From positions 576,001 to 640,000 of the forward strand of contig CAWEXO010000011.1 of assembly GCA_963813025.1 (NCBI GenBank): a stretch of DNA of 64,000 nt, in the 5' to 3' direction. Positions 27,345 through 35,622 of the stretch are shown here, piece by piece; the stretch's first letter is position 1, and each line of letters opens with the position of its first letter. The notes below the pieces were generated by a model. The model was not told the DNA's origin. It made no database searches and saw nothing but the letters and a program-made list of their open reading frames with translations. The stretch comes from an uncultured Verrucomicrobiae bacterium. Its GTDB lineage: Bacteria > Verrucomicrobiota > Verrucomicrobiia > Chthoniobacterales > JAFAMB01. A program made the translations under genes and the position numbers.

Positions 27345-27499
27345 GGCTCGACGTTCCGTGGTTGAGAATCAAAGTTCAAGGCTGTCGCGCCAGATCGTTT
27401 TGGCTGAGCGATTTATCACGCCAGTCTGGCCAATGCAGGGTATCGAAGCGCGTTTAAGCGATGGGAAGGACCCGATGCCGGTAGATACGGTCTTGGATG

Positions 27500-28510
27500 T
27501 CAAGGGCATTGCTTTAAGGAATGGCGGGCCAGGTTAGGATTGTAGGGTTGTTGGTGAGCGAGAACACCGAAGGCGATGTGCAGGAGTTTTCGCATGACGG
27601 CACCGCGGATAGCCAGGGAGTGGAGCTTGCGCGACTCGAGACCTGCGGCCCATTGCTGGATGGGTTTACACCAGCGGCGAGCAACGGCGGCCGGCAAATA
27701 GAGTGCTTTGCGCAGGAAAGCGTTGCCGATTTTGCACAGGGTGGTTTTGCCGTAGAGCGAGACACCGGAACGGAATTCAGAAGGATTCAGCCCAGCATAG
27801 GCCGCCAACTGCCGAGCCGATTGGAACTCTTTACCGGCCAGCTCGGCCAGCAGCTTGGCGGCCGTGAGCTGGGCAATGCCGGGAATAGAGCACAGCAGTT
27901 GGCTTTGGCGGCTTAAAGCCTGATCAGCCGCGACTAAGCCGAAGATGGCCGACTCCAGCTGAGCGATTTCTTTCTTGAGCTGGGCGAGTCGTTGGCCACG
28001 CTGTTGGCTGATAAGCTCGGGCAGCGCAATTTGGTAAGGGTCTTTTTTCACCCGGTTCTGTTCCCGGATGAGCTTGCCAACCCGGCTTTCGCGCTCCCGC
28101 ACCAGCAGTTTGAATTCTTCCTCAAGGGGGCGCAGCGGCCGAGTGGCCAGTGGTTTTCGCTCCAGACAAAACTGGGCAATGATGGCCGCATCAACCCGAT
28201 CATTTTTGGTGCGGCGCAGGACCGAGAAAGCAAAGTATTTGACTTGGGCGGGATTGAGCACGCTGACCGCCAAGCCTGCTTGGTGCAGAGCGGCGATCAA
28301 TCTCTTCCCGTAGACCCCGGTGGCTTCCAGGGCGAAGTGGATCTGGGAGAGCGGCCAAGAGCGGGCCTGGAGTTGGGCTAAAAATGCTCCAATGCCGGTC
28401 GCATCATTGCTGAACTTTCCCCGCCACAGGCGAGTGCCATTCTTGGAGAGCAGGCAAAAGTCAAAGCTTGCTTTTGCCATATCAATACCCATGCAGTAGC
28501 GTTTTTTCAT
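27500..28510 (-). CDS. IS110 transposase / bridge recombinase (336 aa)
   Basis: RuvC-like DEDD (GID, LEATG, KND..DA), SIPGI, A.AGL.P...SG.S (Tnp serine), GNA.LRK.LY, A.MRKL. Confidence 0.95.
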   Translation of the reverse strand: MKKRYCMGIDMAKASFDFCLLSKNGTRLWRGKFSNDATGIGAFLAQLQARSWPLSQIHFALEATGVYGKRLIAALHQAGLAVSVLNPAQVKYFAFSVLRRTKNDRVDAAIIAQFCLERKPLATRPLRPLEEEFKLLVRERESRVGKLIREQNRVKKDPYQIALPELISQQRGQRLAQLKKEIAQLESAIFGLVAADQALSRQSQLLCSIPGIAQLTAAKLLAELAGKEFQSARQLAAYAGLNPSEFRSGVSLYGKTTLCKIGNAFLRKALYLPAAVARRWCKPIQQWAAGLESRKLHSLAIRGAVMRKLLHIAFGVLAHQQPYNPNLARHSLKQCP

Positions 28511-28559
28511 CAGACAGGAATTCGCGTTGAATTGGTTCTTTGTTTGATGAAGCGCTTGG

Positions 28560-28790
28560 GCGCGCGCCTGCTGACAGAGCCTTGTGAACACGGGCTTATG
28601 TTCCAACCCTGTTTGGAAGGGCCTAAGATACGGTACGGTCTTATGCAGGTGCGGCACGAGGAAGGGTGGACTAATCTACCGGACAGGTTCTACCGACCTT
28701 TGGGCGAGGCAGTTTTCCACCCTCCTCGGCCAAGTTCTTCACCTCCAGAGTTCCGCCCTTGCGGGCGGCTTTAAAAGGGAAAAAAAATTG
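28560..28790 (-). ncRNA. IS110 bridge RNA (target-binding and donor-binding loops)
   Basis: Guides CCTCGCCCA (28709-28701), CCGGTAG (28682-28676), ACCGTATCT (28634-28626) and CACAAG (28586-28581) match the target and donor; closing stem GAGGAGGGTGGA/TCCACCCTTCCTC; ends are approximate. Confidence 0.82.
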
Positions 28791-28805
28791 GTGGGGCAAG
28801 GTACA

Positions 28806-28956
28806 AGGGCGAACACTTGTTTTGAGCCGGACCCCGGAGTTGCCACCGTCCAAGACGGCTCAAACGAGTCCTCGCTGAAGCTCGGATAAGTTTTCGCCCT
28901 ACCGGTCGTGGACCAGCGGGATTTTGTGAGACAGCCTCTAAATTTTTGCCCTACCG
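28806..28956. repeat. REP family A REPIN on the RAYT 3' side (left arm split by IS110)
   Basis: AGGGCGAACACTTGTTTTGAGCCG...CGGCTCAAAC...TTTTCGCCCTACCGG, plus partial TTTTGCCCTACCG near 28944. Confidence 0.85.
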
Positions 28957-29017
28957 AAACAGGGCAAATAGTGAGTCAACGAGTGCTTAGAGCCGTCACC
29001 ACCAATCAGCAATCGGG

Positions 29018-29458
29018 TCATCTCACCTTGGAATCGCCAACGCGCTGGCTCGTCGTCAAGCCCGCCCTAATCGGATTCACGAGTATATACCGGTACCTTG
29101 CTTCAGCGCTGTCGTGGGCGCGAATCCGATGATGGAATGCCCCGGACTGCCATCTGCACCCTGGCTGATCGAATCGTAGTGAGACCCGCGATTTCCAAAT
29201 CTTGATCCAAAGATCCAGTCCGGCTGGGCCTGAGCCTGGCCAAGCAAAGAAATGCAGGTGATCAGGCATGATCATGTAGCGCCCGATGTGCCAGTCAGTT
29301 GCTTCTCCCCACGCTGCAACGAGCAATGTGTGTACCGTATCGTTAGCCAGCCATCTGACTCGCTTTCGGGTGCACACGGTGACAAGCACCAAAGTGGGCT
29401 GTTCGTCGATAAAAAGAACACCTTTTGCCGGGTGTTTGCGTGGCGGCCGATAATCCAT
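29018..29458 (-). CDS. REP-associated tyrosine transposase (RAYT, Y1 HUH); probable C-terminal frameshift
   Basis: VT.CT, MPDHLH (HUH), WQ..F.H.IR, YI..NP.RAGL; the alternate frame continues EPARWRFQGEM; flanked by GTAG REPs. Confidence 0.88.
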   Translation of the reverse strand: MDYRPPRKHPAKGVLFIDEQPTLVLVTVCTRKRVRWLANDTVHTLLVAAWGEATDWHIGRYMIMPDHLHFFAWPGSGPAGLDLWIKIWKSRVSLRFDQPGCRWQSGAFHHRIRAHDSAEARYRYILVNPIRAGLTTSQRVGDSKVR

Positions 29459-29560
29459 CTAACACAATTATTCGATGTGTTTTCGATCGGCGATTTAAAA
29501 CTTGAACTTTGGCCGCGTCAGATGAAGAGAGTGTGTCGCAACATTGGCCCGATCCCGCGC

Positions 29561-29772
29561 CGGTAGGTGAAAACTTTATTTGAGCCGTTTTGCGCGCGTG
29601 GCCTACCTTTTGGTCCGGCTCAAACAAGTTTTCGCCCTACCGATCTAGGGCGTTGCGCGACATGCTCTTTATTCGAGTGCCAAGCGAGAACTTGTTCGAG
29701 CCGGGCGCTGAGGCAGGTCACACCTAAGACGGCTCAAACAAGTCCTCGCTCGAATAAATTTTCGCCCTACCG
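29561..29772. repeat. Two REP family A REPINs upstream of RAYT
   Basis: CGGTAGGTGAAAACTTTATTTGAGCCG / CGGCTCAAACAAGTTTTCGCCCTACCG (29561-29642) and GCGAGAACTTGTTCGAGCCG / CGGCTCAAAC...TTTTCGCCCTACCG (29684-29772). Confidence 0.87.
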
Positions 29773-29863
29773 ACATCGGGCACGAGGGCGATTTCGTTGC
29801 ACTTATGCCGCGCTGTGATCTGCGATTGCTATCTGCAATCGCGAGCGCAACGTGGCAACATAA

Positions 29864-30256
29864 TCATCCCAGCACCTGCAATGCTTTTTTGAGATCGTTT
29901 GGCCGAAAGATCAACGTGCCGAGTTCCATGTGCGGTCCGCTGGCGAGGTAAGCGTACTCGATGTTTATACCGTGTTCGGCCAGCGTTTTTGCGACGGCTG
30001 ACAAGGTGCCCGGCTTATTGTCGTGCTCGACCATGAGCACTTCGTTCTCGACCACTAGGGTGCCATGAGACTCGAAAATTCCGAGCGCCTTGTGCGGATC
30101 GCTTACTACCATCCGGACCACGGCATGATCGACCGTATCCGAGATGGTGAGTCCGTAGATGTTTATCTTTTCGGCGGCCAAAGCGTCGCAAACCGCGGCC
30201 AGCGTTCCCGGTTTGTTAGCGAGAAACAGGGCGAGTTGAGTAGCAGTTTCCACCAT
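29864..30256 (-). CDS. Tandem ACT-domain protein
   Basis: QL..FL.NKPG.L......L....INI, repeated as DNKPGTL...L...GINIEYAY; 3 nt after the gltB stop. Confidence 0.88.
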   Translation of the reverse strand: MVETATQLALFLANKPGTLAAVCDALAAEKINIYGLTISDTVDHAVVRMVVSDPHKALGIFESHGTLVVENEVLMVEHDNKPGTLSAVAKTLAEHGINIEYAYLASGPHMELGTLIFRPNDLKKALQVLG

Positions 30257-30259
30257 ACT

Positions 30260-34840
<4,581 letters not shown>

Positions 34841-35014
34841 GGAGAAAAAACCCGCTGAGATTATCGTCTAAAACGGCAAAAGCAAGACAAAAAACATCTT
34901 TTTACATTAGATTTCGGTCGCCCATAAAGAACAATTTGCCTAATGTCGGTCGAAGCCAAACATGCGGCTCGCGGGAAATGGAGAGAAGGTTTTCCCGAAG
35001 CCTTCTATAGTGAC

Positions 35015-35594
35015 ATGAGAATTTTAGATGAGCAAGAGAAGGCGATCGTCCGCCAATTGATTCGCGATCCCCGCCAGTCGGATAACGCGGTGGGCGAGCG
35101 AACGGGGATAAACGTGCGAACAGTCAGCCGCAAACGGCTGCGGCTAGAACAGGAAGGAATACTGTCCTATTATCGCCAATGTCGATCTCTCCGCCGATGG
35201 CGCGCGCCAATTCATCGCGCGACATCTGTATATCATCAAGTTCCGCGTCGGCGTGACTTACAAGCAGCTGCTGGACGAGATGCGACAGGAATCGAATCAA
35301 CAACCGGTTTTCACTGAAAGTATTTACGAGAGTCACATGGCCGAGATCGACGGCAAGGTGGCGCTTCTTGTCTATGTCGATGGTGACAGCGATCTGGACA
35401 TCGTGCGCCGGGTTCACGAGGAGATTGTTCCGACGCTGTTTGAGAACCACGGAAACGATTCAATCGAAGAAATCTCGACGGTGCGATTGTTATCTCCCGT
35501 CCGCGTGATGCGGAATTATCTGCCACTCATTAATATGGCCGAAGGCTATCTCAAGCCCGAGTGGCCGTTGGAAGCCATCTACGTGGGGAAATAG
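35015..35594 (+). CDS. Lrp/AsnC-like regulator (frameshift near 35175), divergent from gltB
   Basis: LDEQEK.I...L..DPR.SDN..G...G...RTV..KR..LE..G HTH; C-terminal half in ORF 35253-35594. Confidence 0.72.
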
Positions 35595-35622
35595 CGCGGG
35601 CGGCCTCGTCCGTAGTCAGGCG

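Follow-up and report, generated by a model that had tools for sequence, protein, structure and literature searches.

An IS621-like insertion sequence inside a RAYT-associated repeat of an uncultured Verrucomicrobiae bacterium

Layout of the locus

The stretch of DNA analysed here, called the window, comprises 64,000 nucleotides of contig CAWEXO010000011.1 from an uncultured Verrucomicrobiae bacterium (assembly GCA_963813025.1; genome G000), and positions follow the window numbering. It carries an insertion sequence (IS) of the IS110 family that lies within a repetitive extragenic palindromic (REP) sequence, and this REP adjoins a gene similar to those of REP-associated tyrosine transposases (RAYTs). 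An earlier note on the same DNA described this three-layer arrangement, and the analysis confirms it. The explanation in which we place strong confidence is that an IS621-like element, directed by a bridge RNA, targets the GTAG foot of abundant RAYT-associated REPs, needs no RAYT nearby, and reached its place beside the gene by a chance landing.

The element splits the GTAG foot of the REP at a CT core, and its end lies 210 bp from the stop codon of the RAYT-like gene at 29018 (Table 1). The sequence before the element is CCGGTAG, positions 28808-28829 read GGCGAACACTTGTTTTGAGCCG, and AG stands at both IS ends. Excision of 27485-28807 in silico joins CCGGTAG to the REP body at 28808 and returns exactly the 29-mer reconstructed in the earlier note, which had also placed it correctly as the left arm of a REP doublet (REPIN) about 200 bp from the RAYT gene. 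Together with the arm ending at 28905, the restored arm folds into one long hairpin of -31.6 kcal/mol (DNA parameters). Hairpins of the doublets range from -22 to -39 kcal/mol, while three single REPs fold weakly (-1.0 to -2.8 kcal/mol). As for the further REPINs that had been noted across the RAYT gene, two doublets are indeed present, of which the second has only one GTAG foot.

The motif GGTAGGGCGA occurs 231 times in the genome, compared to 9.7 expected copies and 16 copies of a reversed control; given this count and the uniform junctions of all 12 two-ended IS copies, the insertion into a REP is not due to chance. On the 5' side of the GGTAG foot, at a distance of 6-7 nt, a CT is fairly conserved among 243 sites (C in 79%, T in 58%) and is a candidate site of RAYT cleavage.

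No true empty allele of the window site was found in the relatives and read contigs searched. A search of the rest of the genome for the 29-mer gave nothing within one edit and four copies within two. Contigs from three read runs cover the IS, a RAYT paralogue, and REPs without a joint across the IS; one soil run contained a quarter of the sequence words. A genome of the same genus (G001) is syntenic at the site and has no REP, RAYT, or IS there. Its gap carries a different repeat, so G001 provides no test of the reconstructed REP.

Table 1. Features of the locus (window numbering). LTG and RTG, left and right target guides; LDG and RDG, left and right donor guides.
Feature	Positions	Strand	Basis
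REP 5' piece, CCGGTAG (GTAG foot); AG is the CT core on the minus strand, CCGGT the right target	27478..27484	+	Sequence; same junction in 12/12 copies
IS right end: left-donor sequence and core (27483-27491), -35 hexamer TTGACA (27498-27503)	27483..27503	-	
IS110-family, IS621-like insertion sequence, 1,323 bp including one CT core	27485..28807	-	Identical ends and different flanks of 12 genomic copies
IS110 bridge recombinase, 336 aa	27500..28510	-	PF01548 and PF02371, NF033542, IS621 structure match
Predicted bridge RNA, approximate limits	28560..28770	-	Fold z -2.0, guide positions, guide-target covariation
Bridge RNA guides	LTG 28701-28709, RTG 28676-28682, LDG 28626-28634, RDG 28581-28589	-	
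Start of IS left end: core, right-donor sequence, -10-like TACCTT (28798-28803)	28798..28807	-	13 such ends genome-wide
Remainder of interrupted REPIN: left-arm body, spacer, right arm (free CC-type foot at 28896-28905)	28808..28905	.	Sequence
Degenerate single REP directly downstream of RAYT	28935..28957	-	Sequence
RAYT-like HUH Y1 transposase gene, 146 aa (154 aa in two paralogues)	29018..29458	-	Motifs, NF047646, Atlas clusters
REPIN upstream of RAYT, both feet present	29560..29642	.	Sequence
Second upstream doublet, left arm without GTAG foot	29681..29772	.	Sequence

The insertion sequence and its copies

The recombinase scores 204 bits against NF033542 (cut-off 140), and its best match in the PDB is IS621 (8WT6, E 4e-46). 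Residues D10, E62, D104, D107, and S248 are all kept, which gives a DEDD RuvC-like domain and a Tnp20 domain with its serine; they correspond to catalytic residues described in PMC11208158.

Fourteen places in the genome were examined. Twelve hold two-ended copies, one holds a left end only, and one with REP sequence only was dropped. Seven full copies are 99.0-99.7% identical with an intact frame in each. The other two-ended copies comprise a copy from which 80 bp are deleted, a copy interrupted by a different repeat of 1,450 bp, and three internally deleted derivatives of 629-1,010 bp (C15:123620-124629, C9:218159-219169, and C12:154615-155245), which retain both ends and the guides. Because the derivatives on C15 and C9 are 99.4% identical at separate sites, such derivatives probably moved in trans. 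The C9 derivative has a one-base change in the right guide. The 1,450-bp element is itself present in three near-identical copies (C9:67401-68850, C11:168084-169533, and C13:244723-246172), one of them within an IS copy.

A CT dinucleotide is common to both ends in all 12 two-ended copies, with no longer target duplication. The right-end junction is CT-ACCGG throughout; the left-end junction is TCGCC in 11 copies and TCGCT in one. All 12 copies occupy the identical position of the same repeat. The earlier note had named copies lying mostly outside REPs as the outcome that would count against it, and genome-wide the opposite is found. Every insertion is at the CC variant of the REP, although CC accounts for only 100 of 243 free sites (P 3.6e-5), and this exclusive use fits pairing across the full 7-nt right guide.

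Guides and target sites

The left end of the element carries guides that fit its target and donor; their order is LTG, RTG, LDG, RDG, as in IS621. Covariation of guides and targets, which the earlier note had proposed as a check, was scored on 79 two-flanked sites that reduce to 42 distinct guide pairs. Guides were taken from alignment columns, after exclusion of duplicate loci and of those in which either end could not be recognised. Agreement was 237/294 for the left guide (10,000 shuffles: 128 +/- 7, maximum 156) and 168/210 for the right guide (shuffles 89 +/- 6, maximum 113), so both exceed every shuffle. For the left guide, whichever of two registers agreed better was used, for the real data as for the shuffles; the shuffles ignore kinship. 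For the 13 pairs at >=65% identity, agreement was 74/91 on the left and 62/65 on the right.

Several observations weigh against such guidance. Between the left guide of the window element and its own site, only 5 of 7 positions agree. Scored in one register, left agreement falls to 123/294, and the subset at >=45% identity lies below the shuffle maximum. The right guide of one relative (G015) has one mismatch to all of its sites. Genome by genome, the commonest REP variant tracks the guide variant only partly: CC makes up 95/231 copies in G000, the AG variant 18/153 in G015 compared to 1/231 in G000, and the AC variant just 3/80 in G023. By analogy with IS621, we expect that the bridge RNA is expressed and that recombination is RNA-guided.

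The hexamers TTGACA and TACCTT are spaced 17 nt apart only in a computed circle junction, where they form a predicted junction promoter. No circle junction was found in the genome assembly.

Relatives of the element and the question of convergence

Named relatives with recombinases 46-77% identical are Verrucomicrobiae or Chthoniobacterales assemblies, which points to a host from the same group. A phylum-wide search found a match at 1e-60 in 1 of 400 other genomes, and the ends of that match are of another type. In target and guide, the E. coli element L230 agrees with IS621 as described in PMC11208160; it shares its end motifs with the window element, and the target loops of the two can be aligned. 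An alignment of five left ends with MAFFT misplaced IS621, and a larger alignment was used instead.

The earlier note saw in this locus a convergent strategy of REP targeting, and the comparison does not support it. Since ends, donor, and bridge scaffold are common to IS621 and the window element, the machinery is homologous, and GTAG targeting is the commonest habit of the IS621-like group. Among 65 labelled rows, 45 have a right guide that ends in GTAG; these rows come from several phyla and are spread over the tree, and GTAG guides predominate in close (8/13) and distant (17/24) pairs alike. Likely, GTAG targeting was kept unbroken along the path to the window element.

Independent evolution of REP targeting here and in IS621 is the strongest of the competing accounts, and we still consider it improbable. 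It gains from the fact that guides can be re-programmed. The GTAG label changes at least 11 times on the tree, six of these changes being forced by starred branches, and the tree is a quick one with its deep branches open, which leaves an ancestral GTAG guide unproven. In the sister group of the clade that contains the window element, 4 of 5 rows are non-GTAG, so the lineage may have gone back to GTAG. Against these points stand the common descent of the machinery, seen in the shared donor, ends, and scaffold, and the prevalence of GTAG guides at both levels of relatedness.

Dependence of the IS on GTAG REPs is not obligate, because relatives have been retargeted to non-GTAG repeats. In G012, the element inserts at another repeat with 19 free perfect copies, the REP motif has 3 copies, and no RAYT match was found at 1e-15. 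L160 and L169 target CCCGAAG / CCCGGAG sites. More widely, the retargeted relatives L005/L010 (G012), L160, L166, L169, and L086-L104 lie in repeats of the ACCACAAAG type, the CCCGAAG/CCCGGAG type, and the GGGGTCAG type, and in these IS621-like relatives the core is always on an AG. Such repeats may belong to other Y1 transposases.

The RAYT-like gene and upkeep of the repeats

The product of the gene adjoining the REP has the RAYT motifs HUH (as HLH, 67-69) and Y-x3-NP (at 124), the latter a class-2 signature (10.1101/279083). It scores 60 bits against NF047646, and both intact paralogues score 68 bits, below the cut-off of 80; a Pfam search of the window protein at 1e-3 gave no match, and for these reasons the gene is termed RAYT-like. 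Atlas clusters with PF01797 (Y1_Tnp) in Verrucomicrobiota contain the RAYT-like protein. Compared to its paralogues, the window copy is short of two single bases near the 3' end and may be frameshifted. The adjoining region of the glutamate synthase large subunit (gltB, 29869-35600) shows about 40 one- or two-base indels relative to the intact 1,529-codon frame of G001 and is either a locally error-rich assembly or a pseudogene. In view of these indels, the missing bases of the RAYT gene may be an assembly error.

The earlier note further proposed that the RAYT maintains the landing pads of the IS. The association behind this claim is found, and it stops short of demonstrating activity. GTAG repeats, abundant across the genome, lie on either side of the gene. 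GGTAGGG repeats lie within 350 bp in 32 of 35 related RAYT loci, the repeat type following the RAYT clade, and the closest relative found (G010, 53-55%) is flanked by the same REP. Among 25 genomes of the family, a RAYT flanked by GGTAGGGCGA was seen in 9/12 REP-rich vs 2/13 REP-poor genomes (Fisher p 0.005), and a close IS relative (>=75%) in 4/12 vs 0/13 (p 0.04). The threshold for REP-rich, 40 copies and three times the control, was chosen after the data had been seen; of the 45 RAYT matches, only 30 were retrieved; incomplete genomes are numerous, and related ones do not count as independent. G001 retains a 139-bp relic of the window-type RAYT and has 16 motif copies vs 12 of the control; no IS was found in it. 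Decay of REPs following RAYT loss has been described (10.1101/2021.07.10.451892, PMC3686654), and other RAYTs cleave single-stranded REP at CT in a GTAG-dependent manner (PMC8266576). The correlations thus support upkeep of the REP population by the RAYT family.

It is quite unlikely that the repeats are instead of other origin, with the gene merely sitting in an abundant family that it does not maintain. This account can draw on the score below the NCBIfam cut-off, the possible frameshift, a RAYT activity that is predicted from sequence, and 3 of the 12 REP-rich genomes, which have no GGTAGGGCGA-flanked RAYT among the fetched loci. The clade-specific repeats around 32 of 35 RAYT loci, the same REP beside the G010 gene, and the joint loss of RAYT and REPs in G001 are set against it.

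Adjacency of the insertion sequence and the RAYT gene

Two of the 12 insertions, those in the window and on C15, are in RAYT-flanking REPs. Measured against the sites near the three RAYT genes of the genome, this adjacency has p 0.088 when perfect sites are counted and 0.119 when all are, and it looks like chance. The IS beside the C15 RAYT is of another subtype, 82-90% identical to the window copy and 99.4% to the C9 copy, which indicates separate landings. Outside the genome, the flanks retrieved for 79 close IS loci (1.2 kb or longer in 39 cases; some sites repeated) contain no RAYT, and 2 of 76 distant IS loci have weak RAYT matches. The special meaning that the earlier note gave to this single locus is thereby not borne out.

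A mild preference of the IS for RAYT-flanking REPs is possible and would be at odds with a purely chance landing, as would the finding that two of the three RAYT copies have a neighbouring IS. In G023, a RAYT-flanking REP holds three extra bases identical to the IS left end (L324 / G023:C221 near 37500; L059:2025). These bases may be the scar of a lost IS, removed by deletion between 4-nt microhomologies.

A stronger version, in which RAYT activity or RAYT-proximal chromatin (extruded single-stranded hairpins, nicks at CT) favours nearby REPs and so links the three layers, seems rather remote to us. The two RAYT-flanking insertions and the possible scar would suit it, and a target stem-loop raises integration of ISPpu10 (preprint 10.64898/2026.03.19.712850). 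On the other hand, ISPpu10 requires only recombinase and RNA according to the same preprint, the single REPs here fold weakly, and neither the p values nor the close IS loci show an association.

Three RAYT copies in one genome

RAYT copies of 95.1-97.2% nucleotide identity lie at C11:605021-605458 (the window gene), C14:454609-455073, and C15:124761-125225, together with a 90% piece of the 3' end (C4:19386-19465) and an 80% relic (C11:78014-78182). All three reach the 95% identity by which 10.1101/119735 defines duplicates; according to that paper, duplicates of this kind are uncommon and RAYTs do not multiply on their own. Each copy is located between different genes, and the same flanking genes adjoin without a RAYT in G001, separated by 348, 413, and 921 bp; the 921-bp interval contains another gene. 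The segment common to C14 and C15 starts and stops in REPs. Insertion junctions are unmappable, since the intergenic DNA of G001 does not align.

We tentatively suggest, while giving it somewhat less than even chances, that this RAYT is not fully domesticated and that a REP-bounded unit (REPtron) still copies itself. The lineage would then be a living intermediate between IS200-like transposons and fixed RAYTs, with an RNA-guided IS tracking its spreading repeats. Instead of self-transposition, the copies may owe their places to recombination between repeats or to assistance by another element. Duplication of RAYTs to new sites was suggested earlier for pseudomonads (PMC3686654). Five RAYT pairs in other genera that retain their flanking genes argue against general mobility. 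No RAYT pair above 86% was seen in the other fetched genomes, whose fragmented assemblies collapse repeats, and no RAYT was found in viral contigs. At G019:C323 and G023:C221, a RAYT of a different clade (42-46%) lies downstream of an ACT-domain gene, as in the window (29018-30256); this applies to 3 of 31 loci. Since the window position also holds a RAYT in this other genus, the RAYT may have been lost there in G001.

That the RAYT is cargo, with IS, REPIN, and RAYT moving as a composite that explains the RAYT copies, is very improbable, despite the equal order and orientation of IS and RAYT at C11 and C15, the IS-driven RAYT multiplication proposed for Neisseria (10.1101/2021.07.10.451892), and the cargo capture demonstrated for ISPpu10 (10.64898/2026.03.19.712850): the RAYT is outside both IS ends, no IS end is near the C14 copy, and the two adjoining ISs are less alike (82-90% identity) than the RAYT genes beside them (95%).

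A second RAYT family with GGTAGGGA repeats is present in G000 (C13:20967-21416) and G001 (C1:68958-69610 and C2:326296-326914). It is not syntenic between the two genomes, and G000 C11 near 65000 is without a unit that G001 has. None of the 12 IS insertions is in its repeats.

Proposed mechanism and significance

The limits of the element, the CT core at the AG of GTAG, the matching guides, the shared site of all 12 copies, and the preference for the CC sub-variant are direct observations. From there, the chance-landing explanation would proceed as IS621 does. Excision of the IS as a circle would assemble a promoter of the sigma-70 type at the junction, the bridge RNA would be produced, and the recombinase would join donor and target at the core. 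The RAYT family, as correlation and literature suggest, would sustain the REPs and so provide about 100 free perfect sites. The IS would require neither the RAYT protein nor a RAYT nearby, and the copy beside the RAYT would be one of twelve independent landings in repeats that are dense around RAYT genes. REP targeting would be a common habit of the IS621-like group, whose guides have been re-programmed repeatedly. The interpretation given in the earlier note is partly supported overall.

The element provides an intact and recently active IS621-like recombinase from a soil member of the Verrucomicrobiota, a candidate tool and not a new principle. Natural re-programming of guides onto several repeat families, together with the 7-nt right guide, represents a natural test set. 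If the RAYT copies did transpose by themselves, self-movement of RAYTs and the spread of REPs to new lineages could be tested with one gene and its flanking repeats, and the RNA-guided IS would be a parasite on a still-mobile element.

Comparison with known systems

IS-targeted REPs are not new. Tobes and Pareja (2006; PMC1525189) listed IS110-family ISs (ISPa11, ISPpu9, ISPpu10, and ISRm19) whose insertions invariably split a REP at a single position; these are proteobacterial, unlike the window element. REPs are mentioned as IS targets in the RAYT literature (PMC2817692), and RNA guidance is established for IS621 (PMC11208160, PMC11208158). In our literature search, which took in neither subscription papers nor supplements, no paper joined IS110, REP, and Verrucomicrobia, and none joined bridge RNA with RAYT. 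IS621-like REP targeting is therefore already known, and a multi-copy RAYT is the less expected part.

Like IS621 of E. coli (PMC11208160, PMC11208158), the window element combines an IS110 DEDD and serine recombinase with a CT core, a predicted left-end bridge RNA with the same guide order, insertion at CT-AC, which is the GTAG foot of the REP, and a near-identical donor (two differences in 14 nt compared to L230). It differs in that protein identity is about 35% and in that both the REP family and the host phylum are different. Its right guide appears to act over 7 nt and to select the CC variant, its left guide has a terminal CA where IS621 has CT, and it has internally deleted derivatives that retain both ends and guides.

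Described REPtrons (PMC2817692, 10.1101/279083, PMC8266576, 10.1101/119735) resemble the second partner of the locus in the HUH motif, the Y-x3-NP class-2 signature, and a gene between inverted GTAG repeats that occur more than 200 times in the genome and form hairpins as doublets. The differences are the weak folding of single REPs in the window, a gene score below the NCBIfam cut-off, and the presence of three copies at 95.1-97.2%; RAYT groups 2 and 3, in contrast, are reported not to duplicate (group 3 has 0.8% duplicates; 10.1101/119735).

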